In this document: piece after piece, positions 4,794 through 43,622 of the stretch
Layout: each line of letters begins with the position of its first letter
How positions within the stretch are numbered: the first letter of the stretch is position 1
Source of the DNA: a virus
Strand: one strand, 5' to 3'
DNA: 43,982 nucleotides
Virus genome (UHGV): UHGV-0179801
Translations under genes and position numbers: made by a program
The notes under the pieces: model-generated
Databases searched by the model: none
Seen by the model: only the letters and a program-made list of their open reading frames with translations
What the model was told of the DNA's origin: nothing

Positions 4794-4822
4794 TTGCACA
4801 CACCAATATAATAGGGTACTAT
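4794..4822 (+). promoter_or_regulatory. sigma70-like promoter TTGCAC-N17-TACTAT with AATAG-N4-CTATT inverted repeat
   Basis: Conserved 25-nt block caccaatataatagggtactattca (4801-4825), near-identical at 6608 and 40231, followed by the conserved leader tcgaaacgaggaga and an ATG. Confidence 0.55.
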
Positions 4823-4850
4823 TCATTACATCGAAACGAGGAGATGAAAA

Positions 4851-5024
4851 ATGTTCAAAGAAAAAGACATAATGCACGAAAACGGCAAATACTGGGTTCT
4901 AAATGATAAAGGAGTGTACTGCGTAATGATTTCCGGGTTTACCCACGCTAAAGCTGATAGTGCATACGCTAGTTTAGATTTAGCGATAGCCCGCTGTGAT
5001 TATCTGGCGAGTAGAGACGCATAA
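4851..5024 (+). CDS. small moron protein (57 aa), hypothetical
   Basis: ATG 4851 after the conserved promoter/leader (gaggagatgaaaaATG); opposite strand to the flanking late genes; followed by a terminator hairpin. Confidence 0.5.
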   Translation: MFKEKDIMHENGKYWVLNDKGVYCVMISGFTHAKADSAYASLDLAIARCDYLASRDA

Positions 5025-5027
5025 ACT

Positions 5028-5050
5028 AAGGCCCCGTAATGGGGCCTTTT
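5028..5050 (+). terminator. rho-independent terminator (AAGGCCCC-gtaat-GGGGCCTT-TT)
   Basis: Perfect 8-bp GC-rich stem, 5-nt loop, T-run; member of a conserved hairpin family recurring at 7183, 30767 and 42010. Confidence 0.6.
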
Positions 5051-5051
5051 A

Positions 5052-5510
5052 TCAATCTGGCTTAGTGACCTTCGCCGCCTTGCTTACCACCTCAACTCCA
5101 TCGGTATCAGTAACTTTAACGAAGTATTCGCCAGCTGCGTTAACCGACAGAGACAAAGCCTGTTCTGGTGCGTTAACCACTTCCTTACCGTCCTTGTACC
5201 AGGTCAGAGTATACGGCGCTTTACCCGCTTTAACTTCGACAGTGATAGTTGCGCTGCCGTCTGCCAGTTCGGCGTCCTGCGGTTGCACAGAGAAATACAC
5301 ATCGCCAGCATCAGCCAGATACGGAATCTCATAAAGCATACCCGCCGCCGGCAGCGCAATACCGGTTTTATCTGCAAACGGCATATCGTCTACGGGCGTA
5401 CCGAGTACACTTTCATCTTCAATAAATACCACGTTCTCGCCGGAGCCAGACACGCGGGCGTACTGGACTACGCGACGCGCGGGTACATCAGTTACTTTGA
5501 AAAAGCCCAT
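5052..5510 (-). CDS. Ig-like domain structural protein
   Basis: Track ORF; GGGGA RBS; C-terminal Ig-like signature (APYTLTWYKDGKEV ... GEYFVKVTD); downstream of the head morphogenesis gene. Confidence 0.5.
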   Translation of the reverse strand: MGFFKVTDVPARRVVQYARVSGSGENVVFIEDESVLGTPVDDMPFADKTGIALPAAGMLYEIPYLADAGDVYFSVQPQDAELADGSATITVEVKAGKAPYTLTWYKDGKEVVNAPEQALSLSVNAAGEYFVKVTDTDGVEVVSKAAKVTKPD

Positions 5511-6600: not shown

Positions 6601-6629
6601 TTGCAGACACCAATATAATAGGGTACTAT
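6601..6629 (+). promoter_or_regulatory. sigma70-like promoter TTGCAG-N17-TACTAT (conserved family)
   Basis: Same 25-nt block as at 4801 and 40231, followed by the conserved leader tcgaaacgaggagatgagaaATG. Confidence 0.55.
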
Positions 6630-6656
6630 TCAGTTATCGAAACGAGGAGATGAGAA

Positions 6657-7178
6657 ATGGTTACTACAGTAATTACTTTCCCTGCGTATGTAGGGGCGAA
6701 AATCTGCAGGGCGAAAAATGATGTGCGCTATTATTTGAACGCTTTTTACATAGACCCTGAAGGATTGATAGTTTCTACGGATGGTCACAGATTGTTCTGC
6801 GACAACGTGAAGACAAACGTCGAAACTGGAGTTCTAATAGACATCAAAGGGAGGGAGCCTTCTAAATTTAACTACGCGGAGGTAGACCACGACAACGGTA
6901 GTGTTTCTTTCTATGACGATAGTAGTGCGCTTGTATGTACACTTCCTATTGAAGTTGTAGACGGGAGATTTCCTTACTGGAGACGTGTGGCCGGCATTAC
7001 GCCGGGTTCAGTCGATAGCATAGGGTTCTCTCTGCGCTATTTGGCGGACGCGTACAAGATTTCTAAGGCATACAAAAATGAAATTGCCCGTTTCGATTTC
7101 CAGGACCAAACAAACGGATGCAAAATATCATTTTCAAACACTGCATTTATGGTGCTAATGCCAGCGCGATTTAAATAA
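6657..7178 (+). CDS. truncated DnaN-like (beta sliding clamp) protein, 173 aa
   Basis: Matches to recalled E. coli DnaN: NDVRYYLN (DnaN DVRYYLNG), STDGHRL (ATDGHRLA), VVDGRFPYWRRV (LVDGRFPDYRRV), SIGFSLRYLAD (EIGFNVSYVLD), C-terminal AFMVLMPARFK (AYVVMPMRL). Roughly half DnaN length; own promoter and terminator. Confidence 0.7.
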   Translation: MVTTVITFPAYVGAKICRAKNDVRYYLNAFYIDPEGLIVSTDGHRLFCDNVKTNVETGVLIDIKGREPSKFNYAEVDHDNGSVSFYDDSSALVCTLPIEVVDGRFPYWRRVAGITPGSVDSIGFSLRYLADAYKISKAYKNEIARFDFQDQTNGCKISFSNTAFMVLMPARFK

Positions 7179-7182
7179 AACT

Positions 7183-7208
7183 AAGGCCCCGAAAGGGGCC
7201 TTTTCTTT
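7183..7208 (+). terminator. rho-independent terminator (AAGGCCCC-gaaa-GGGGCCTT-TTCTTT)
   Basis: 8-bp stem, GAAA loop, T-run, directly after the stop at 7176-7178; same hairpin family as 5028. Confidence 0.6.
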
Positions 7209-8679
7209 ACTCCTGTTGCTGCTGCGCCGACTGCGGAATCTCTCCTGCTACCTGAGTAACAGCACCCAATGGCAACGGTGCATCTTCGATAGCGTTCTGA
7301 ATATCCTCGTCGGTCCAGTCGGTCACACCTGCCTTACGCAACGCCGCATAGTAAGCGGTAGCCGGTAGCAGGCCCGCGTTAATGTCCGCCATCCACTGAG
7401 CGCGGTCCTGGGCGGTCATCGGTTGCAGGAAGAACTCCATATTCAGTTTGAACTCAATCTCTGTGCCTTCACGCAGCCCAAGCATCGCCGCTACCCAGCG
7501 CAACGCATCTGTATACGCCATGCTTACATTACGTGCGATTGTCGCCATGACGGACGTATCCGCACCACGTTGCAGGCGGGCTGATTCGGCGGTGATTTGC
7601 TGCGTCGGGGTGATAAGCTGTGCGCCAATCTGAATTGCCTGATTCTCTTTATCCAGCATGTTCTGTTTGGCGAGGTTGTTCTCTCCCGCCTGAACCAGAA
7701 ACGCATTGCCGCCGTAGCCGATGTTATGGCCTGAACGAGACCCCATGCGCACGCCGTGTGGGTTAGCTTCTTTCCACTGTTCCATGCTCATGTTCTCACC
7801 TGGCGCAATGAACAGAGTGGGCTGGCCTACAACGAAGCTGGACTCCTCATTGTCCGCGCTGTTGCGGAAATGTCCGATATTAAGCTCAGCCAACGGCAGC
7901 AAAGGTGCATCATCAATGGTTGCGTCGTTGTTGCTCGCCCCAATGAACGTGAACGGTATTTTACCGCGCAGCTGTTCTCCGAGTTCCGGGAAGATTTCGA
8001 TTACGTCACCCTGAGCACCACCTTCGGCGTCGAAGCGGTAAATGCGCTGGCGGTAGCGCCCGTCAATCAAATCGAGAACGCGGTATTGTTCGCCGAATTT
8101 TGTTTCGAACTCCGCGCCCGGTTCTGAGTATTCCCACACCTCACGCAGCACGACCGTTGTCACACGGTTAACAGAACCGATGCGTGTCAGTCGCCAGTTG
8201 ATGATGTTCTCTGCGGTATAGAATGCGATTACCGGGTTTAATAACCCCGCGTTCTGCTCTGCCGCCGTTGCCGCGGCTGTCTCTGGGGCGTCCACCAGCA
8301 ACCCGCCGCGGCCAACCGAGTCAATCTCCATCAGCGTGTCCTGCGCGTGCTGCCACAACCCGACACCAGAACCGTCGGCATTACGTAACAGGTACTCCAG
8401 TTCAGGCGGGATAATTTGCTCGGGGTCTTTACGCATCACTGACCCCACCATCCCGGCCAGAGTACGTTTGGTGAAGTTGTAGCAGATAGCGCCGTTCTCG
8501 TATTCTTCCTGGCGCTGCGCAGCGTAGGTAGGCTCCGGCTCGTTCTTCCCGACGTTGCGAAGATAGCGGATAAGGTCGCCTTCCAGCGCGTGGCGTACCT
8601 TCTGCCATTTATCGAAGTGATGCAGCCATTCCCGGTGTTTTGTTTTAACACCCTGATTCTGACCGTTCATAGTTAACAT
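7207..8679 (-). CDS. portal protein
   Basis: 490-aa ORF immediately downstream of the large terminase gene; AGAGGA RBS; size and position typical of a portal. Confidence 0.7.
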   Translation of the reverse strand: MLTMNGQNQGVKTKHREWLHHFDKWQKVRHALEGDLIRYLRNVGKNEPEPTYAAQRQEEYENGAICYNFTKRTLAGMVGSVMRKDPEQIIPPELEYLLRNADGSGVGLWQHAQDTLMEIDSVGRGGLLVDAPETAAATAAEQNAGLLNPVIAFYTAENIINWRLTRIGSVNRVTTVVLREVWEYSEPGAEFETKFGEQYRVLDLIDGRYRQRIYRFDAEGGAQGDVIEIFPELGEQLRGKIPFTFIGASNNDATIDDAPLLPLAELNIGHFRNSADNEESSFVVGQPTLFIAPGENMSMEQWKEANPHGVRMGSRSGHNIGYGGNAFLVQAGENNLAKQNMLDKENQAIQIGAQLITPTQQITAESARLQRGADTSVMATIARNVSMAYTDALRWVAAMLGLREGTEIEFKLNMEFFLQPMTAQDRAQWMADINAGLLPATAYYAALRKAGVTDWTDEDIQNAIEDAPLPLGAVTQVAGEIPQSAQQQQE

Positions 8680-16848: not shown

Positions 16849-16879
16849 CTTCTGTCTCTCCTCTCGTTTGTGCAAATGA

Positions 16880-16908
16880 ATAGTAACCTATTCTATCCCA
16901 GTGAGCAA
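16880..16908 (-). promoter_or_regulatory. sigma70-like promoter TTGCTC-N17-TACTAT (minus strand) with AATAG-N4-CTATT repeat
   Basis: Minus-sense reads TTGCTC-17 nt-TACTAT then the conserved leader and an ATG; inverted repeat at 16879-16892. Confidence 0.5.
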
Positions 16909-18023: not shown

Positions 18024-18056
18024 CTTTAAATTCCTTATGTCTCGTTGCTATAAGTG

Positions 18057-18086
18057 AATAGTATCCTATTATATTGGTGTGTGCAA
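18057..18086 (-). promoter_or_regulatory. sigma70-like promoter TTGCAC-N17-TACTAT (minus strand)
   Basis: Reverse complement of 18054-18086 is ttgcacacaccaatataataggatactattcac, the same conserved block as at 4794, 6601 and 40223. Confidence 0.55.
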
Positions 18087-36421: not shown

Positions 36422-36918
36422 TGCATCGGGTCCCAAATTCGAGGAAACGTTGATTGCGCAGTTCCGTAGGCTTTAAGGAGGCACCCCAGCACATCACCAT
36501 AGCAACCATACAAATCTGGCAGATTGTTAACAAGGCACTGATTATCTTCGTCCTGAAACGGCGATTTCTCGGCGGTTGCCGTGAAAGTAATCGTCCAGTT
36601 AATACCGTCTTCGGTGGCCTCGGCGATGGTGGATGTGATCGTTACCTGATAGTCCTCAATACCCATGCCGAAGTCGTGCGCCATCCAGAAACTTGACGCA
36701 CCGCCATCGACTTTCTCAAGGAACGACAGGAACGCCTGCCGCCCTAGTGCAGATGTAATCAGGGTTACGCTTATCGGAAACACGTCGTAATATGTGTCAC
36801 GGCCCTGACGCACCCCGCCACCGGCTAAATCGACACTCCAGACGTTGTTACGTCTGGTCATTGAGTAGCCTTTTGACACCACCGGCTTAAGGCTACGTGG
36901 AAAGTATAAGTCAGTCAT
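36418..36918 (-). CDS. minor tail protein (lambda M-like / distal tail)
   Basis: ATG overlaps the tape measure stop (TAATG); assigned by gene order. Confidence 0.5.
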   Translation of the reverse strand: MTDLYFPRSLKPVVSKGYSMTRRNNVWSVDLAGGGVRQGRDTYYDVFPISVTLITSALGRQAFLSFLEKVDGGASSFWMAHDFGMGIEDYQVTITSTIAEATEDGINWTITFTATAEKSPFQDEDNQCLVNNLPDLYGCYGDVLGCLLKAYGTAQSTFPRIWDPMQ

Positions 36919-39341
36919 TATTTAAACCCCGGCGCGTTTCTTGTGGCCTTGCGGGCCTTGCTAATCTTACTGTTGCTGTTCTGCAAAGACGCAGCCACTT
37001 GCTCTTCGATGATGATACGCAGACGTCCTTCGTCATCTTGTTCAGTAGACACATTGCCAATCTGACTCGATGTGTTATTTACGATGGTAACATTAGATGG
37101 GCCACTATTTCCGCTATTATTGCCGTTTAACTGCTGCCGTGTTTGGCTTGCGTTTACCGCGCGCCCCGCCCCCGCCATCTTGATAATCTCTGGGCCGCGC
37201 TCACCGACAAGATAGCTGCCGCCAGCGTTCATTTGCCCGCCCTGTTCGCGGAATCCGGTTAAGGCTAACGCTTGGGTACTCGCAACCGTTGATGTGATGC
37301 CCGCCATCGCCGGTGCGCTGTTTGTCCCTAGGGTAGCCAGGGACGCCATAGCTGCAGCGGGGGCATACGCTGCAGCAATCGCCGCTCCGGTAGCCGATGC
37401 TGTCGCGATGGACGCCGCGGATGCCGTTTGGCCTGTAATCATGTTTTTCAGGTACTCCACCCCCATCTGTGTTAGCCCTGAAACGACCGATGACAGGATT
37501 GCGTTGCCGAGGTTTGCCATTGCTTCGCTAGCGGTCTGAGTACCATTAATAAGTCCGACTATGGAGCTGGACGCGGAAGCACCCACAGCGTCCAGGGAGT
37601 CCATAAGCATATTGTTCCACTCGGATTGGTTGCGGAAACGCTCCTCGGCAGCGGCAGCCAGCCCATCGTTATATTGCTTGTCCAGTTCCGCCCGTGCCTG
37701 CAACGCGACTTCATGCACGGAGTTTTCTTGTGCCTCGTACTCCTCTATAACCGCAAGCCTTTTCTGCCGCTCGAGCTGTAAGTTAGCGATAGGGTCTATT
37801 GACGCCAGAACCGCCACACCTTGTTGCAGTTTTTTCTGTTCCTCGGCTAACTCTTTATCAATAGCGTCTTGTCGTTTTTGCCCGTATTGAAGAACTATTG
37901 CTGTTTTCGCCTTTTCGTATTCTTCAGCAGTTAGCGCCCCTTCTTTTCGGTATTTAGCGGCCTCCTTAAGTTTCTGCTGTTCCTGCGCGTTAATAGCCTT
38001 TAACTCATCGTTGTTCTGACGAGCCAAAGTGTCGAGATAATCTTGCGCCTGTTTACGCAATTGCTCCGCTTTCTTAGCGGCGGCTTTCGCGTCTTTGTCG
38101 TTGGTGTTTCCTGTCCCACCAGTCCCGCCCTTTTTATTAACAAGGCTGGCCAAGTCAATTTCTTGCTTCCTGCGCTCGTCGTACTGCTTGCGCTGCTCCT
38201 CAATTTCTTTCTTGCGCTGCTTAGACCTGTTGGTAATGGCCTGTGATTCGGCCTCTGCACGTTTTATGCTAGCGTCATACGCGGCGTCAGCCTCTGCGGT
38301 CAGGTTTTTAAATGTGAGCGCTGCCGTTTTGCTCGGGTCAAACACGTCGGCAAGGGTCTGGCCAAGCGCTACGGCGTAATCGTCAATGCGCTGGAACCAC
38401 GCAATAACCTCGTGGAATGTCTGCTGAATGTCAGGCAACCATTCACGGATAGCATCTGGAATAGTCCCCAGCGAGTCTGACATATCCGCGGATTTGTCCT
38501 CGGTATCGAATGCCAGGTCATTCAGGGCATCAGAAATAAACTTGAACGACTCATTGAACAGCGTCACCCAATCCTGGAGCGTGGCTGCTATCTCATTAGA
38601 CACTATAGCGTCGGTGAGCGCCGTTACTGCGTCTTCTGCCAACGCAGCTTGTTCGCCTACGGCGTCGCCAAAACCAGACTGCGCTACCGCAAGAACAAGG
38701 CCGTCGAAGGAGTCGGCGAGGCTCGACAACTGACCATCTAATGTCTTCGAGCGCGTCTCCATCGCCCCGGCGAAATCGGTGTTGCCGATGTTTAACAGAT
38801 ATTTCTGAATCTCTTCGGAGTTCTTTTTAACCGTGGTGGTAACGCCGCGGAACGTGAACGACACTGTATCCGCCTGTTGCGACGACTTGATGCCAAACTC
38901 TTTTAGTCGCTCAAACTCAAAGGTACTGGCGTCGGCAACTGCCTCAATCATCTGATTAAGGTCTTTACCCATAGCCGCCGCGGTGTTGCCGTAGGAGATT
39001 AATGCCTCTTTGCTGGGGTTCAGGCCCAGAGCCACCAGCTTAGTAAAGCCTTCCACCGCCTGATTAAGCCCGTATGGTGTTTCTTTTGCGAACTGTTGCA
39101 GGACGCTGAAAGCCTTAGCGGCATTCTCAGCGCTCCCGGTCATCGTGATGAGGCCAGAGTTCAGCTTATCGAAGTTTCGCTGGGATGCCACCAGCGCACT
39201 GAACACCTGCTTGGCGGTTTCCAGGCTGACAACGGCAGCGGCGGCCGCCCCCGCCGCCTTAGTAAGCCCGTTCAGTTGGGATGTGGTTTTATCGACGCCG
39301 GTCGATGATACTCGTACTATCAAGCTAGCGGTATCAGCCAT
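36918..39341 (-). CDS. tail tape measure protein
   Basis: 807 aa with long Gln/Lys/Glu/Ala-rich predicted coiled coils (KQRKKEIEEQRKQYDERRKQEIDLASL...) and Gly/Ala-rich C-terminal region; follows the chaperone pair. ATG 39341 preferred over track start 39356 (TTG). Confidence 0.8.
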   Translation of the reverse strand: MADTASLIVRVSSTGVDKTTSQLNGLTKAAGAAAAAVVSLETAKQVFSALVASQRNFDKLNSGLITMTGSAENAAKAFSVLQQFAKETPYGLNQAVEGFTKLVALGLNPSKEALISYGNTAAAMGKDLNQMIEAVADASTFEFERLKEFGIKSSQQADTVSFTFRGVTTTVKKNSEEIQKYLLNIGNTDFAGAMETRSKTLDGQLSSLADSFDGLVLAVAQSGFGDAVGEQAALAEDAVTALTDAIVSNEIAATLQDWVTLFNESFKFISDALNDLAFDTEDKSADMSDSLGTIPDAIREWLPDIQQTFHEVIAWFQRIDDYAVALGQTLADVFDPSKTAALTFKNLTAEADAAYDASIKRAEAESQAITNRSKQRKKEIEEQRKQYDERRKQEIDLASLVNKKGGTGGTGNTNDKDAKAAAKKAEQLRKQAQDYLDTLARQNNDELKAINAQEQQKLKEAAKYRKEGALTAEEYEKAKTAIVLQYGQKRQDAIDKELAEEQKKLQQGVAVLASIDPIANLQLERQKRLAVIEEYEAQENSVHEVALQARAELDKQYNDGLAAAAEERFRNQSEWNNMLMDSLDAVGASASSSIVGLINGTQTASEAMANLGNAILSSVVSGLTQMGVEYLKNMITGQTASAASIATASATGAAIAAAYAPAAAMASLATLGTNSAPAMAGITSTVASTQALALTGFREQGGQMNAGGSYLVGERGPEIIKMAGAGRAVNASQTRQQLNGNNSGNSGPSNVTIVNNTSSQIGNVSTEQDDEGRLRIIIEEQVAASLQNSNSKISKARKATRNAPGFK

Positions 39342-39666
39342 GATTTCTACCTTCAAAGATTGCTTCTAAGCCCATGATAATGTCTATCTCGAACAGGCTA
39401 AGCTGTTTTTGCGTAACATCGAGATAGGCTTTCAGGTCTTGCCACGTAACGGATTCTCTTGCAAACAATACTACAGCGTCCTCGCGCACGTGTCGCGTAA
39501 ACTTAATGTCACAGTACGTCTCAAAGGTGGATATAAAAAGGGGCGGGCATTCTAGCCCACCCCGTCGCGCTGCACGTTTTTTCTTATCGATTACACCCAT
39601 CGCGATAAGCGCCTGTTCGTGTCCGTCAGCTATAGAATCAAACTCTCTGATTTTATGCTTGTCCAC
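39334..39666 (-). CDS. tail assembly chaperone, T-like frame (likely made as a G-T fusion)
   Basis: ORF in the -1 frame relative to the upstream chaperone; its frame stays open back to 39723, overlapping the last 8 codons of the G-like gene. Confidence 0.45.
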   Translation of the reverse strand: MDKHKIREFDSIADGHEQALIAMGVIDKKKRAARRGGLECPPLFISTFETYCDIKFTRHVREDAVVLFARESVTWQDLKAYLDVTQKQLSLFEIDIIMGLEAIFEGRNHG

Positions 39667-39698
39667 AAACTCATAGGTGGCGAACCTGTACAGCGCGT

Positions 39699-40115
39699 CT
39701 ACTTTTCCTGTAATGCTTTGCGCTCAGCGTTATGGAACGCAGCTACCTGGGTTCCAAGCCCTTTGAACTGGTCCAGCAATTTGTTAAATGCTTCTTTAGA
39801 GAAAGGCTCATCAAAACTCCAGCCGTTTACTACTTCTGCCGCGAGTTGTCGGTTGAGATCTTCCGCCAGTTCGTTAACCGCCAGGTTATATTCAGTATAG
39901 TCGCCGGATTTTTTGGCGGCTTTTTCCAGTTCTTCGAAACGCGCCAGCCCGCGGCGGTACGCGATAATGAAAGCACGCCCGGCTTTAACGGCGGCATCCG
40001 CATCCGGATTTACAACGTTAAGCCACTCCCCTGAGTCTTCACCATTTGGTAGGAGAATGGGCATCTTCTTGCCTACCAGTGCTTTCTCTTCGAAATAAAA
40101 ATCAGAAAGTTTCAT
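39699..40115 (-). CDS. tail assembly chaperone (lambda G-like)
   Basis: 138-aa acidic protein between the major tail gene region and the tape measure gene; AAAGGA RBS. Confidence 0.55.
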   Translation of the reverse strand: MKLSDFYFEEKALVGKKMPILLPNGEDSGEWLNVVNPDADAAVKAGRAFIIAYRRGLARFEELEKAAKKSGDYTEYNLAVNELAEDLNRQLAAEVVNGWSFDEPFSKEAFNKLLDQFKGLGTQVAAFHNAERKALQEK

Positions 40116-40222
40116 TCTTTGATCCTTTGGTTAAGAGGTTACAGGTTAAGGGAAATGCGCCAGACGGGAACCACCCGCTTTTCGTGTGCGACACTAGGCG
40201 CAAACTTATTCTAGCACACTAC

Positions 40223-40251
40223 TTGCACACCCCAATATAATAGGGTACTAT
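40223..40251 (+). promoter_or_regulatory. sigma70-like promoter TTGCAC-N17-TACTAT (conserved family)
   Basis: acttgcacaccccaatataatagggtactattca, the same block as at 4794 and 6601. Confidence 0.55.
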
Positions 40252-40281
40252 TCACTTACACCAACAATGGAGGAGTTTAAA

Positions 40282-40473
40282 ATGTCAAGTTTACCAGTTT
40301 CCTTAATTCTGTTTGCACTACTCGCTTATTTTGCGCCTTTCCTGGTTGCATATTTCCGCAACCATAAAGCGAAGTTAGCGATATTCATGGCTAACCTGTT
40401 TCTTGGCTGGATTCTGCTGCCGTGGGTATTTATTTTAATCTGGGCTTGCAACTCGAATGTCAAAGAGAAGTGA
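40282..40473 (+). CDS. small membrane protein (63 aa)
   Basis: ATG 40282 after GGAGGAG RBS; two hydrophobic helices (LPVSLILFALLAYFAPFLVAYF, LFLGWILLPWVFILIWA). Confidence 0.5.
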   Translation: MSSLPVSLILFALLAYFAPFLVAYFRNHKAKLAIFMANLFLGWILLPWVFILIWACNSNVKEK

Positions 40474-40510
40474 GCTAGTATAGGACAAATCCTAAGCACG
40501 AGGAATAAGC

Positions 40511-41641
40511 ATGGCCAGGAAGAAAATAACCGACGAACAGTTGCAGGAAGAATTGAACGCCGGTATGAAGAATATCGACATCGCTCGTAAATACGGCATC
40601 TCAGACCGCGTTATTCGCATCCGTAAAGCGAAGCTGGCAAAGAAAGGCGTAGGTCATGGGCGCGACGTTAGCCACCTTGTGCCAGATGGCTACAAGATTA
40701 AAGGAACGTCGTCACTTGTCGATGAGTTCGGCAACACTAAATTGCAATGGGTTAAGACCGACACCGATGCTGAACGTCAGGTTGAACTGATGAAAGCCGT
40801 GGTTGAAGGTATGAAGTCAGAGATTACCCCGGTTGCGCCTGTTAAAGCGACTCGAGCCAAACGTGACGATAAACTGCTCAATCTTTACACTGTGTCTGAT
40901 TTCCATCTCGGTATGCTTGCATGGGCCGACGAGAGTGGCGACGACTGGGACATGAAGATTGCAGAAGACCTGTTCTCTCGCTGGTTCGACGCAGCGTTTC
41001 AGAAAGCGCCGGACGCAGGAACGGGCGTTATTAACCTGCTTGGTGACCTTGCGCACTTCGATAGTCTGGATGCCGTTACGCCGGCAAGCGGTCATGTTCT
41101 TGACGCAGACACGCGCTATCAGAAACTGGTCCGCTACATGATTCGTATGGTCCGCCGTGTCGTTGATATGGCCCTTGTTAAGCATAAAAATGTTCGCTTG
41201 CTTATTGTGCAAGGGAACCACGACGAGAGTGGCATGATTTGGCTGGCTGAGATGTTCAGTACGCTATACGACAACGAGCCGCGTGTGTTCGTCGATACGT
41301 CACCGGATGTTTACAAGATGGCGCGACACGGCAAAACAACGTTGTTCTTTCACCATGGACATAAAGCACGCTTCGACGCTATCGAGCCGGTTATGATTGC
41401 CAAGTTCCGCAAAGCGTTCGGCGAGAGTGTTTACAGCTACGCTCACGTAGGGCACCTGCACCATCAGAAGATTGTAGAAAGCCGTAACATGATTGTTGAG
41501 CAGCACCGCACTTTAGCGGCTAAAGATGCCTACGCCTCCCGCGGCGGATGGATGTCAGGCCGTAGTGCAAACGTAATTACTTATAGCGCCGAATATGGCG
41601 AGGTCGCGCGTTTAACTATTTCACCGGAGATGCTGGGATGA
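40511..41641 (+). CDS. HTH domain fused to calcineurin-like metallophosphoesterase
   Basis: N-terminal HTH-like NIDIARKYGISDRVIRIRKAK; phosphoesterase motifs VSDFHLG, GDLAHFD, GNHDE, HHGH, GHLHH. Confidence 0.65.
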   Translation: MARKKITDEQLQEELNAGMKNIDIARKYGISDRVIRIRKAKLAKKGVGHGRDVSHLVPDGYKIKGTSSLVDEFGNTKLQWVKTDTDAERQVELMKAVVEGMKSEITPVAPVKATRAKRDDKLLNLYTVSDFHLGMLAWADESGDDWDMKIAEDLFSRWFDAAFQKAPDAGTGVINLLGDLAHFDSLDAVTPASGHVLDADTRYQKLVRYMIRMVRRVVDMALVKHKNVRLLIVQGNHDESGMIWLAEMFSTLYDNEPRVFVDTSPDVYKMARHGKTTLFFHHGHKARFDAIEPVMIAKFRKAFGESVYSYAHVGHLHHQKIVESRNMIVEQHRTLAAKDAYASRGGWMSGRSANVITYSAEYGEVARLTISPEMLG

Positions 41642-41868
41642 CTTCAAAATACAACCGCACAATGACAAACACTCACGGTAGCACTATGACAGTAGATGTT
41701 TACGATGTGCTACGTGCCTTCGACATCCGCGACCCGGCGTTGCAACACGCATTGAAGAAACTATTGTGCATGGGCTTGCGGGGGCACAAGGACACCGGAA
41801 CAGACTTAGCGGAAGCAATTGAAAGTCTGGAGAAGTTACGGGAATATCGAAGCAATATTGACGAATAA
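41638..41868 (+). CDS. hypothetical protein (76 aa)
   Basis: Track ORF, ATGA-coupled to the phosphoesterase gene. Confidence 0.45.
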   Translation: MTSKYNRTMTNTHGSTMTVDVYDVLRAFDIRDPALQHALKKLLCMGLRGHKDTGTDLAEAIESLEKLREYRSNIDE

Positions 41869-41882
41869 CTACTAGGTATTTT

Positions 41883-42005
41883 ATGAAACTAATTATTAAC
41901 TTCTTTAAAGCCTTAACAGGTAACGATTTTGAGATCGACGGAGGTTGGCTAGTGTATGACCCTACTTTTGATACTTGGTTGTGGCATAAAGAGAAACCTC
42001 GATGA
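41883..42005 (+). CDS. small hypothetical protein (40 aa)
   Basis: Not in track; ATG 41883; ends just before the terminator. Confidence 0.3.
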   Translation: MKLIINFFKALTGNDFEIDGGWLVYDPTFDTWLWHKEKPR

Positions 42006-42009
42006 GAAA

Positions 42010-42036
42010 AAGGCCCCTTTCGGGGCCTTAGTTTTA
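42010..42036. terminator. bidirectional rho-independent terminator (AAGGCCCC-tttc-GGGGCCTT)
   Basis: 8-bp stem with T-tracts on both strands, between the rightward cassette and the convergent major tail gene. Confidence 0.6.
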
Positions 42037-43203
42037 TGCGTAGGTGATGCGCTGGATAACAATAGACGACTGATATTGGTTGCCGGTAGCCTGGCCTTCG
42101 ATGGACTGAGTGATTGACTCTGGTCCGCCAATCTCAGGCGTAACCGCCGTAAGCTCTGCGCGTTTCAAACTGAAAGACATAACCCCGTTTACCCCCGCCA
42201 GAATAGAGTTAATCTCTACCTGCTGTTCATTGATAAACTTCTGAATCATCGCCATGTCGTACAGCTTGCCGGAGATGGAGAAGGTGTTAGCCGCGCGACC
42301 ACGTTCCACGAACGCAACGCTACTGTTCCCTAGTTCAAACTGAGCGGATGCGCCGTTGTCGTTGGTGATGGTCAGAGTATCGCAACGCAACGGCGTAGAA
42401 CCGTCGAACACGGACACATCTACAGAAGAGAACGGCTCGTCAGTGAACGTCACCTGGGAGAAATCAGAGCCAGACGGCGGCGCGGTAAGAATCTCCTGAC
42501 TCAGACCGATGAATGGGAAGCTCCCCGTTACCATCGCGTTAACAGCCTGCTCGATAGTAAAACCGGAGATTTCCACGCCTTTGGTCAACATGTACGCGTC
42601 CGGGTTCCCGCACTGACCTTTGAACCATGTCAGGATGGAGAAAGTCTTACATGCATTACCGGTTTCCAGTTTGTCACCGGTTTTTCCATCGGTCTCAATA
42701 GGGCCTTCGGCGGTAAGGGTGTGCTGAATGCCGGCGCCAGTAACCACAGTAGCTGTTACGGCAGTAACGATGAACGGCTTAGAGTTATCGCCAGTTAAAG
42801 CGTCAAAATACAGAAGGTCCCCGACCTCTACACCGTCAGTAATGAAACTGCCAGTGTTGCGGGTGAAAGTTTTTGCTACCGGGTCTACCGTAATACCAAC
42901 AGCGGATAAGGTTACCCCATCCTGCCACGTAGATGTCATCGCACCAGCAAGGAAATCATCCTGACTACGGGAGCTAAGCTCAATGGCATACTCCCCGCTA
43001 ACCTGTTTGTTACCGGTGCGGATAGATGTAGTTTCACGGCTGCCGTCCAGTTCGTTGGAAGTCAGCGCATCGCGGGTTACAGCGGGAACACCGCCGGTGT
43101 TACGCAACGGCGACCATACCGGGTTACTTGGTGTTACGCCAGGGGTCACTTCCGCCACATAGAATTGCGCGGTATTCGCGCCCTTAAAAGGAGTTGTAGC
43201 CAT
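42034..43203 (-). CDS. major tail protein
   Basis: 389 aa; AAGAGG RBS before ATG 43203; first large gene of the tail block after the neck genes, followed by a strong terminator. Confidence 0.6.
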   Translation of the reverse strand: MATTPFKGANTAQFYVAEVTPGVTPSNPVWSPLRNTGGVPAVTRDALTSNELDGSRETTSIRTGNKQVSGEYAIELSSRSQDDFLAGAMTSTWQDGVTLSAVGITVDPVAKTFTRNTGSFITDGVEVGDLLYFDALTGDNSKPFIVTAVTATVVTGAGIQHTLTAEGPIETDGKTGDKLETGNACKTFSILTWFKGQCGNPDAYMLTKGVEISGFTIEQAVNAMVTGSFPFIGLSQEILTAPPSGSDFSQVTFTDEPFSSVDVSVFDGSTPLRCDTLTITNDNGASAQFELGNSSVAFVERGRAANTFSISGKLYDMAMIQKFINEQQVEINSILAGVNGVMSFSLKRAELTAVTPEIGGPESITQSIEGQATGNQYQSSIVIQRITYA

Positions 43204-43205
43204 AT

Positions 43206-43622
43206 TCACAGCCTCTTGGTGAATGCAATAAAGTTAATTGACAATGGTCGTTTGGCCCATCCGTTTTCTACAATCAGCGGCCCCAGGCTAACCGATTGAA
43301 CCTCGGCGCAGATGTCGTTACGTGAAAATGACTTACCTGCTTTAAACGCCGTGTTAAGTAAGTCTGCCATTTTATTGATTGGCGCGCTACCTTTCACCGA
43401 TGCATAGTTAATGTCGACCTGATAAATACCGGAGCGTTGTTCCGTGAAGAACAAATCCGCCTGTTCCGTATCCGCAAGTAGCATGTAACTAGCCAGATAC
43501 GGCGTATCGGTTGACGTCGGCGCGTCGATGTTTTCAAGTGCTACCTTGATGCCGTTGGCGGTTCCGAAGGCTACCAGCGGCACATCAAACGCTTTTGTTA
43601 AGTCCTCAAAGTAGCCCATCAT
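43206..43622 (-). CDS. tail terminator / tail completion protein (putative)
   Basis: 138 aa immediately upstream of the major tail gene; assigned by gene order. Confidence 0.4.
   Translation of the reverse strand: MMGYFEDLTKAFDVPLVAFGTANGIKVALENIDAPTSTDTPYLASYMLLADTEQADLFFTEQRSGIYQVDINYASVKGSAPINKMADLLNTAFKAGKSFSRNDICAEVQSVSLGPLIVENGWAKRPLSINFIAFTKRL

Follow-up and report, generated by a model that had tools for sequence, protein, structure and literature searches.

What does a metallophosphoesterase gene do inside a phage tail module, where it is transcribed against the surrounding operon? The question is raised by the virus genome UHGV-0179801 (43,982 nucleotides, analysed at full length and referred to here as the window), a near-complete Kagunavirus-type genome with its structural genes on the minus strand. 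In this genome, a rightward cassette at positions 40223-42036 lies between the tail-tube gene and the tail-assembly-chaperone genes, and contains a promoter box, four open reading frames (ORFs) and a strong bidirectional terminator. The second frame, ORF2, encodes a 376-amino acid protein with a predicted N-terminal helix-turn-helix (HTH) and a metallophosphoesterase core. The cassette itself is a standard conserved accessory cassette of the Guernseyvirinae (Kagunavirus/Jerseyvirus), already annotated in hundreds of published genomes and largely ordinary, and the novelty implied in a preliminary description of this DNA was overstated, given its annotation in many GenBank records. Interest is confined to ORF2, which belongs to a large, uncharacterised family of SbcC-less, HTH-fused, Mre11/SbcD-like proteins. 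The reading that we favour, with slightly better than even confidence, is that ORF2 is a DNA-end nuclease or phosphodiesterase acting in phage DNA metabolism or in host-DNA breakdown.

ORF2 (40511-41641, plus strand) consists of an HTH (residues ~8-44), a module comprising a beta-hairpin and a helix (~61-103), and a binuclear metallophosphoesterase core (~119-376). Motifs I-V of the calcineurin-like superfamily (DxH, GD, GNH[D/E], H and GHxH) are complete, with motif I reading SDFHLG, motif II GDLAHFD, motif III GNHD and motif V GHLH, a style that we take to resemble Mre11/SbcD more than the PPP phosphatases. Nine motif residues (D130, H132, G178, D179, N236, H237, H282, G314 and H317) do not vary among 100 homologues (33-50% identity), nor in a set of 124 sequences. 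The AlphaFold2 (AF2) model built with the 124 sequences (pLDDT 83, pTM 0.71) has the beta-sandwich metallophosphoesterase fold, with three N-terminal helices (8-16, 21-28 and 32-44), the beta-hairpin and helix at 61-103, and the phosphoesterase core continuing to the C-terminus. The predicted HTH is supported by these helices, by weak GerE/LuxR-type profile matches (a weak GerE match for ORF2 in Pfam, and GerE/LuxR-type matches from the family profile), and by the precomputed HTH Pfam matches of ORF2 homologues. The fusion of an HTH to a complete metallophosphoesterase motif set, as first described from the sequence, is thus borne out by the invariant residues and the modelled helices. Further invariant residues specific to the family are found in the middle module (G65, S67, W80 and K82), in the loop after motif II (T190, P191, D198, D200 and R202) and in the segment following motif V (E323, Q331, H332, T334, L335 and D339).

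Comparison of the ORF2 family profile with known phage enzymes by hhalign gives T4 gp47 at 75.7% probability (E 2.4e-5, 184 columns), in an alignment that spans all motifs as well as the post-motif-V segment (TLAAxDAYAxRGGW versus TLTAGDENDPRGFW). The corresponding values are 19.5% for T5 A1 (over 19 columns only), 4.7% for Bxb1 gp47 (86 columns) and 0.7% for lambda NinI. Because of this ranking, in particular that of gp47 over NinI, the catalytic core of ORF2 appears to be of the nuclease type, nearest to Mre11/SbcD/gp47 and far from the PPP protein phosphatases. A direct search of PDB chains with the ORF2 sequence returns noise only, and the family profile gives marginal PDB matches to GerE and SbcD/Mre11 (E 0.04-0.5). 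The preliminary description had considered a Mre11/SbcD-type repair role unlikely for want of an SbcC-like partner. The lack of a partner is confirmed: no SbcC, Rad50 or gp46 homolog is annotated in Bas74, a closely related complete genome, no SbcC-like gene is found among the long ORFs of the window (which include no unexplained long ORF), and no SbcC/Rad50 gene lies beside the homologues inspected in T1, Webervirus, Autographiviridae and viral contigs. The inference drawn from it, in light of the 184-column match to gp47 (76% when rounded), points the wrong way.

ORF2 differs from Mre11, SbcD and T4 gp47 in several respects. It lacks the capping domain, the AF2 model ending at residue 376 with core strands, and it lacks the C-terminal Rad50/SbcC-binding region. 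The alignment of Mre11 to ORF2 covers 186 of the 362 Mre11 residues, and neither SbcD_C nor Mre11_DNA_bind matches ORF2 in Pfam at E values up to 0.1. Conversely, ORF2 adds the N-terminal HTH and the conserved beta-hairpin module, and it is placed in PHROG 704 (phrog_704, E 5e-167), compared to PHROG 100 for gp47. ORF2 would therefore work like a Mre11/SbcD-type nuclease, yet is not filed here as a member of that family because both the capping domain and the SbcC/Rad50 partner are lacking.

Other phage proteins offer partial parallels. Like ORF2, the mycobacteriophage cluster A proteins Bxb1 gp47 and A10ZJ24 gp48 are stand-alone phage metallophosphoesterases, encoded among replication genes, but they are ~255 aa long, lack an HTH and belong to another family of the superfamily. 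A10ZJ24 gp48 is a phosphodiesterase that damages host DNA and that the phage needs to replicate its own DNA (PMC12287305); being of a different family, it may serve as a functional precedent only. T5 A1, a pre-early protein involved in host DNA degradation, is likewise a DNA-degradation-associated phage protein, and shares a local 'NHDxxxSxWL' near motif III, but is 556 aa long with another architecture, and its gene is located in the first-step-transfer region. A role as a PolD DP1 or eukaryotic-type polymerase B-subunit was also considered and rejected, as ORF2 is without an OB-fold or polymerase-binding module and the phage polymerase is of family A. The label 'DNA polymerase II small subunit' carried by some relatives is a transfer from remote similarity and not evidence for a polymerase subunit.

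The family is large and widespread in phages. A first homologue search gave near-identical sequences only, and the diversity described here comes from a search of representatives at 50% identity together with a profile search. There are 4,601 such representatives (E <= 1e-3), mostly of 370-400 aa, and tblastn finds the family in 2,056 phage records, including T1 (ST16, 45% identity). Other carriers include Webervirus, Dhillonvirus, Autographiviridae (glasur and phiEa1H), and Vibrio, Rhodobacter and Campylobacter phages. Database labels for its members vary between 'DNA repair exonuclease', 'DNA polymerase II small subunit', 'calcineurin-like phosphoesterase' and 'winged HTH protein', all of which denote one large, coherent and experimentally untouched phage family. 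No curated model was found for it, and NCBIfam and PADLOC searches returned no model matching any of the four cassette proteins.

The genes that accompany ORF2 homologues in other phages bear on the nature of the substrate. In T7-like Autographiviridae (glasur and phiEa1H), the homologue follows genes for DNA polymerase, a 5'-3' exonuclease and endonuclease VII; T1 and Webervirus have it downstream of helicase and Dam methylase and ahead of the lysis genes; and in Campylobacter phage F368, a homologue without the HTH directly follows DNA ligase. In 57 diverse IMG/VR contigs, the homologue closes a DnaB-containing, nin-like early region. The next gene in these contigs is a Q antiterminator in 8/57 and an HNH gene in 5/57, with lysozyme and terminase genes further downstream. 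Gene clustering across the 57 contigs reveals no universal neighbour; what the homologues share is a tendency to lie where the early region ends. Because of the N-terminal HTH and these usual neighbours (replication, recombination and nucleotide-metabolism genes, together with a PNKP-type phosphatase, a P-loop kinase-like protein and ligase, described below), we infer that ORF2 has a nucleic-acid substrate. ORF2 would also use nuclease chemistry and bind DNA through its HTH.

Two further features of this position were noted. A Q-type antiterminator gene lies immediately downstream of the phosphoesterase in locus L049 (2858-3217) and in seven other IMG/VR loci. HNH endonuclease genes lie directly downstream in L016 (3671-4171), L004 (6207-6689), L006 (5241-5750) and five IMG/VR loci. 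The phages with an HNH insertion at this point (Jerseyvirus KE06, T1, Vibrio phage 91E30-2 and viral contigs) are unrelated, and the HNH genes are probably homing-endonuclease insertions beside a conserved gene.

The position upstream of Q is also that of lambda NinI (lambda, L098 1225-2510), which belongs to the same metallophosphoesterase superfamily, and ORF2 homologues take this position in 8 lambdoid-like viral contigs. This raises the possibility that ORF2 is a functional analogue of NinI, a Ser/Thr/Tyr phosphatase with host or phage proteins as targets, in line with the protein dephosphorylation suggested in the preliminary description. We consider this highly improbable. No result supports it: the profile similarity to NinI is undetectable (0.7%), the signatures GDxHG, GDxVDRG and GNHE are replaced in ORF2 by SDFHLG, GDLAHFD and GNHD, and a Burkholderia pseudomallei prophage (L012) encodes a NinI-like phosphatase alongside an ORF2 homologue, indicating that the two are not interchangeable.

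A more substantial alternative is suggested by a recurring gene order in which the ORF2-type enzyme is followed by a HAD_PNKP phosphatase and a P-loop protein. This order is present in 7 IMG/VR Kagunavirus contigs (L018-L022, L024 and L034, ~7128-8170), in which the enzyme is 98% identical to that of the window, in Webervirus Call and in Erwinia phage phiEa1H, where DNA ligase comes next (the last two orders being found among L011 4213-5273 and L005 5169-6244), and counterparts share 38-57% identity. The phosphatase (162 aa) matches Pfam HAD_PNKP with E values of 1e-17 to 1e-20 and is ~30% identical to the phosphatase domain of T4 PseT, while the P-loop protein (184-189 aa) belongs to phrog_139, labelled 'dNMP kinase'. 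Adjacent pairs are also found in Klebsiella RCIP0040 and Yersinia vB_YenM phages. Such a grouping would suit the healing and repair of ends as well as the salvage of nucleotides once DNA has been degraded, and either reading implies a nucleic-acid substrate.

In the end-healing alternative, ORF2 would remove 2',3'-cyclic phosphates or 3'-phosphates as a phosphoesterase, or clean ends as a nuclease, within a pathway by which the phage repairs breaks. Together with a PNKP-type 3'-phosphatase, a 5'-kinase and a ligase, it would undo the damage done by host nucleases, such as anticodon nucleases or DNA-nicking defences; in the window, these partners would have been lost or replaced. In addition to the conserved gene order and the PseT-like phosphatase, the ligase directly upstream in Campylobacter F368 agrees with such a role, and there are precedents among metallophosphoesterases: the domain in Clostridium thermocellum Pnkp is a 2',3'-cyclic phosphodiesterase in end healing, and lambda phosphatase is also active (PMC2190708). 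Against it, the window has neither the phosphatase nor the kinase, and ORF3 and ORF4 are not homologous to them; the phosphatase/P-loop pair is present in only 3/57 of the diverse viral contigs, and thus in a minority of lineages; the PHROG closest to the P-loop protein is labelled 'dNMP kinase', which fits nucleotide salvage as well as end healing; ORF2 has no detectable profile similarity to lambda phosphatase; and the HTH favours duplex DNA over tRNA. We therefore regard end healing as an unlikely, though the most credible, alternative to a DNA-end nuclease.

The same evidence bears on the proposal that ORF2 hydrolyses the nucleotide second messengers of host defence systems (CBASS, Pycsar, Thoeris or type III CRISPR). 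No result supports this proposal from the preliminary description, and the HTH and the DNA-metabolism neighbours instead favour a nucleic-acid substrate. ORF2 shows no similarity to PADLOC-related or known anti-defence families, nuclease-type relatives rank higher both by fold and by profile, and a small-molecule substrate would leave the conserved HTH unexplained. The known anti-signalling enzymes Acb1 and Apyc1 have other folds. An anti-defence role of this kind is very unlikely.

ORF2 is the constant element of the cassette across relatives, and the slots on either side of it vary. A megablast search with 40200-42040 matches 448 phage records, almost all from Salmonella and Escherichia Guernseyvirinae (Kagunavirus and Jerseyvirus), and the annotated relatives fBC-Eco01, phiEc3 and Bas74 have the same rightward cassette in the same slot between the tail tube and tail-assembly-chaperone genes. 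In these three genomes, the first gene is annotated as 'superinfection immunity protein', the middle gene as 'calcineurin-like phosphoesterase', 'DNA repair exonuclease' or 'DNA polymerase II small subunit', and the last as hypothetical proteins. The first slot is occupied by an Imm gene in 12 IMG/VR loci, and by a 108-109-aa signal-peptide-like protein (phrog_14165) in three other loci and in Jerseyvirus T102; examples of the latter protein are encoded in L020 (5610-5936) and L015 (2109-2438). The third slot contains ORF3 with or without ORF4, or the HAD phosphatase and P-loop protein; in phiEc3 it contains the HAD phosphatase with ORF3 and ORF4, and in Jerseyvirus an HNH gene, ORF3 and an Ant/Rha-type protein. 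There is no DNA homology between the alternative cargos (ORF3/ORF4 versus phosphatase/P-loop).

ORF1 (40282-40473, plus strand) encodes a 63-aa protein, predicted to be a two-helix inner-membrane protein of the T4 Imm family. Initiation at 40267 instead would extend the frame to 68 aa (40267-40473), but ATG 40282 is the likelier start because it is preceded by a GGAGGAG ribosome-binding site and the promoter box points to it. The protein matches PF14373 (Imm_superinfect) with an E value of 1.6e-12 and 47.6 bits, above the gathering cutoff of 27.9, and phrog_1039 ('immunity to superinfection') with an E value of 4e-24. Its two hydrophobic segments (residues ~4-25 and ~31-56) are separated by the basic loop RNHKAK, consistent with the two-helix membrane protein described previously. 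With a score above the gathering threshold and two predicted helices, ORF1 is assigned to the Imm_superinfect family, which supports the earlier suggestion of the membrane protein as a candidate for superinfection exclusion. The frame has a GC content of 41.7%, compared to 50.6% for the window. By tblastn, ORF1 is found in 368 phage records, nearly all Guernseyvirinae, and beyond close relatives only the second helix region is conserved. It resembles T4 Imm in passing the family threshold, in being a small two-helix membrane protein and in being encoded by a virulent phage; it differs in being shorter, and in that the second helix region alone is conserved across Guernseyvirinae. We know of no exclusion experiment on this Guernseyvirinae Imm subfamily.

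The adjacency of ORF1 and ORF2 behind a single promoter box invites the idea of a joint superinfection-exclusion module, as the preliminary description suggested, or of ORF2 acting mainly as an HTH regulator of the promoter boxes or late genes. The regulator version draws on a weak match of residues 3-36 to a PHROG labelled late transcriptional activator (E 9e-4), and on how often the gene lies where early genes give way to late ones, close to those for Q, lysis and terminase. A joint module is contradicted by the swappable first slot and by the family members without Imm. Imm-enzyme linkage, like ORF3-enzyme linkage, is seen in Guernseyvirinae-type loci only, and members of the phosphoesterase family are encoded without an accompanying Imm gene in T1, Webervirus, Dhillonvirus, Autographiviridae, Campylobacter phages and lambdoid contigs; this pattern argues against a dedicated Imm-enzyme machine. 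The family-wide invariance of the catalytic residues points to enzymatic activity being under selection, and the homologues in Campylobacter phages lack the HTH entirely. Both versions are thus hardly credible beside a DNA-end nuclease.

The cassette is preceded by a conserved box (40223-40258, plus strand) of the form TTGCACAC[A/C]CCAATATAATAGGGTA, which occurs in five copies in the window (4794+, 6601+, 40223+, 18062-18086-, and a weaker one at 16884-16908-) compared to 0.08 expected from shuffles, so that the motif is not a chance match. In the aligned copies the conserved stretch is ~36 nt long, reaching ...TACTATTCA, and each copy is followed ~25-30 nt downstream by a GGAG-type ribosome-binding site and then an ATG. 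The arrangement reads as a phage-specific sigma-70-type promoter, with a putative -35 element TTGCAC (40223-40228), a conserved 17-nt spacer and a putative -10 element TACTAT (40246-40251). The spacer embeds a perfect TATAAT (40236-41), making the choice of hexamer ambiguous, and could be an operator. TTGCAC-17 nt-TACTAT is predicted to be a promoter on account of its five conserved copies, but matches only 8/12 consensus positions, which is why a generic consensus scan missed the site at 40223. The annotation of fBC-Eco01 also has a phage promoter, predicted by PHIRE, at the corresponding position.

The other copies of the box head units elsewhere in the genome. That at 4794-4830 (+) heads a 57-aa ORF (4851-5024, phrog_20712), and that at 6601-6637 (+) heads a 173-aa ORF (6657-7178) that matches phrog_3007 'RusA-like Holliday junction resolvase' (E 1e-35) and has no Pfam match; both ORFs are rightward units embedded against the leftward head module. 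The boxes at 18050-18086 (-) and 16872-16908 (-) head leftward units with which the small-gene early region begins.

At its other end, the cassette shares a bidirectional intrinsic terminator (42010-42029) with the minus-strand tail-tube gene. The element is a hairpin with an 8-bp GC-rich stem and T-runs on both strands, as expected of a rho-independent terminator, with a folding energy (dG) of -26.3 kcal/mol and a z-score of -4.5, and the same element is annotated as a terminator on both strands in fBC-Eco01. Box copies, folding and flank annotation together confirm the rightward unit with its promoter at 40223 and terminator at 42010, as previously delimited between tail and chaperone genes. 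The four ORFs assigned to it earlier (63, 376, 76 and 40 aa) are likewise present in the ORF listing, with the 63-aa start of ORF1 favoured by its ribosome-binding site.

The two remaining ORFs are less informative. ORF3 (41638-41868, plus strand), the start of which overlaps the ORF2 stop (ATGA), encodes a predicted soluble protein of 76 aa belonging to phrog_2452, with relatives in 774 phage records from many genera and one strongly conserved motif. Its predicted fold is confident (a beta-hairpin and three helices, pLDDT 88), and a structural-neighbour search with the model gave no informative match; Pfam searches, PF11753 included, gave no match for ORF3 and seven homologues. DUF3310 (SaV-like) proteins are encoded 1-3 genes upstream of the phosphoesterase in seven diverse contigs (L048, L052, L055, L070, L072, L081 and L095), and ORF3 aligns weakly with these neighbouring proteins by hhalign (28% over 43 columns, in the expected register). 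One protein resembling ORF3, encoded in L060 (~4870-5334), has the same 'FGQQN' tail as the DUF3310 proteins. These similarities provide a weak lead that ORF3 may be a divergent DUF3310/SaV-like relative (for SaV biology, see PMC8306868). PHROG profile coordinates that hint at ORF3 being related to the C-terminal domain appear to be due to longer relatives such as that in L060. Derivation of ORF3 from the P-loop protein as a remnant was rejected, there being no BLASTP similarity and no DNA homology between the cargos.

ORF4 (41883-42005, plus strand; 40 aa) is a putative coding ORF and the weakest element of the cassette. Only 5 phage records contain it, with identities of 97% or more, which is evidence neither for nor against coding, and it has a GC content of 37.4%. 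Pfam, PHROGs and NCBIfam searches gave no match. ORF4 is absent from Bas74, where ORF3 is directly followed by the terminator and the tail tube gene.

The genes flanking the cassette are all on the minus strand. The tail tube gene (42034-43209) matches Pfam Phage_tube_2 (E 3e-37), and family searches (Pfam and PHROGs) identify two tail-assembly-chaperone ORFs, of 138 aa (39699-40115) and 110 aa (39334-39666), and the tape measure gene (36918-39356). The two chaperone ORFs (39334-40115) match positions 1-138 and 152-259 of phrog_15027, respectively, and, with a single PHROG profile covering both, look like the usual programmed-frameshift pair. No minus-strand promoter-like site was found between the tail-tube and chaperone genes (40116-42033), and expression of the chaperone and tape measure genes may therefore depend on read-through of the terminator and ~1.9 kb of antisense transcription across the cassette. 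Such read-through would mean transcription convergent with that from the cassette promoter.

Taken as a working mechanism, the DNA-end nuclease reading would run as follows. The cassette would be transcribed against the tail operon from one of the five sigma-70-type box copies. ORF2 would be a nuclease or phosphodiesterase of the Mre11/SbcD/gp47 type that depends on Mn or another metal and works on its own, with the HTH, and probably also the beta-hairpin module, holding DNA in place of the SbcC/Rad50 clamp and the capping domain. Its task during infection would be the processing of ends or the degradation of DNA, serving either the recombination, replication and repair of the phage or the breakdown of host DNA; in sister phages, the PNKP-type 3'-phosphatase and the P-loop kinase-like enzyme encoded next to it would then act on its products. 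ORF1, as a T4-Imm-family protein, would by homology most likely block entry of the DNA of superinfecting phages, while ORF3 and ORF4 would be exchangeable cargo.

Several observations weigh against this account. ORF2 falls under the gathering cutoffs of both PF00149 (19.9 bits versus 21.5) and PF12850 (20.7 versus 27), and the family appears to be too divergent for the curated Pfam models. The PDB profile matches to SbcD/Mre11 have E values of only 0.2-0.5, and the ORF2 motif set is common to the class III cyclic nucleotide (cNMP) phosphodiesterases (CpdA/Rv0805). Literature searches found no experimental study of any family member. The restriction of the phosphatase/P-loop pair to a minority of lineages and the ambiguity of the 'dNMP kinase' label, both mentioned above, count here as well, and so does the fact that the exclusion role of ORF1 is read from its family membership. 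Finally, a Kagunavirus transcriptome study places the Imm gene among late genes, not early (PMC12645636); early expression of the cassette, as suggested by the shared promoter box, sits uneasily with this late class.

The ORF2 family includes classical phage T1, the Weberviruses that are candidates for Klebsiella therapy, and phages of the BASEL collection, and pairs a Mre11/SbcD-type active site with its own putative DNA-binding domain and no Rad50-like partner. A broader proposal, which goes further than the data and which we think doubtful, is that the family comprises widespread, SbcC-independent, self-targeting Mre11-like nucleases that, with the PNKP-type 3'-phosphatase and P-loop kinase encoded after them in sister Kagunaviruses, Webervirus and some Autographiviridae, form a break-repair or end-healing pathway or, just as well, a pathway for salvage of host DNA to nucleotides, countering nuclease-based defences, with ORF3/DUF3310-like proteins as recurrent partners. 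ORF2 is readily testable, since Bas73, Bas74 and T1-like phages infect E. coli K-12. Should it indeed act on DNA ends as a stand-alone nuclease, it would illustrate how phages can do without the ATPase clamp, and would provide a handle on host-DNA degradation or self-repair by these phages.

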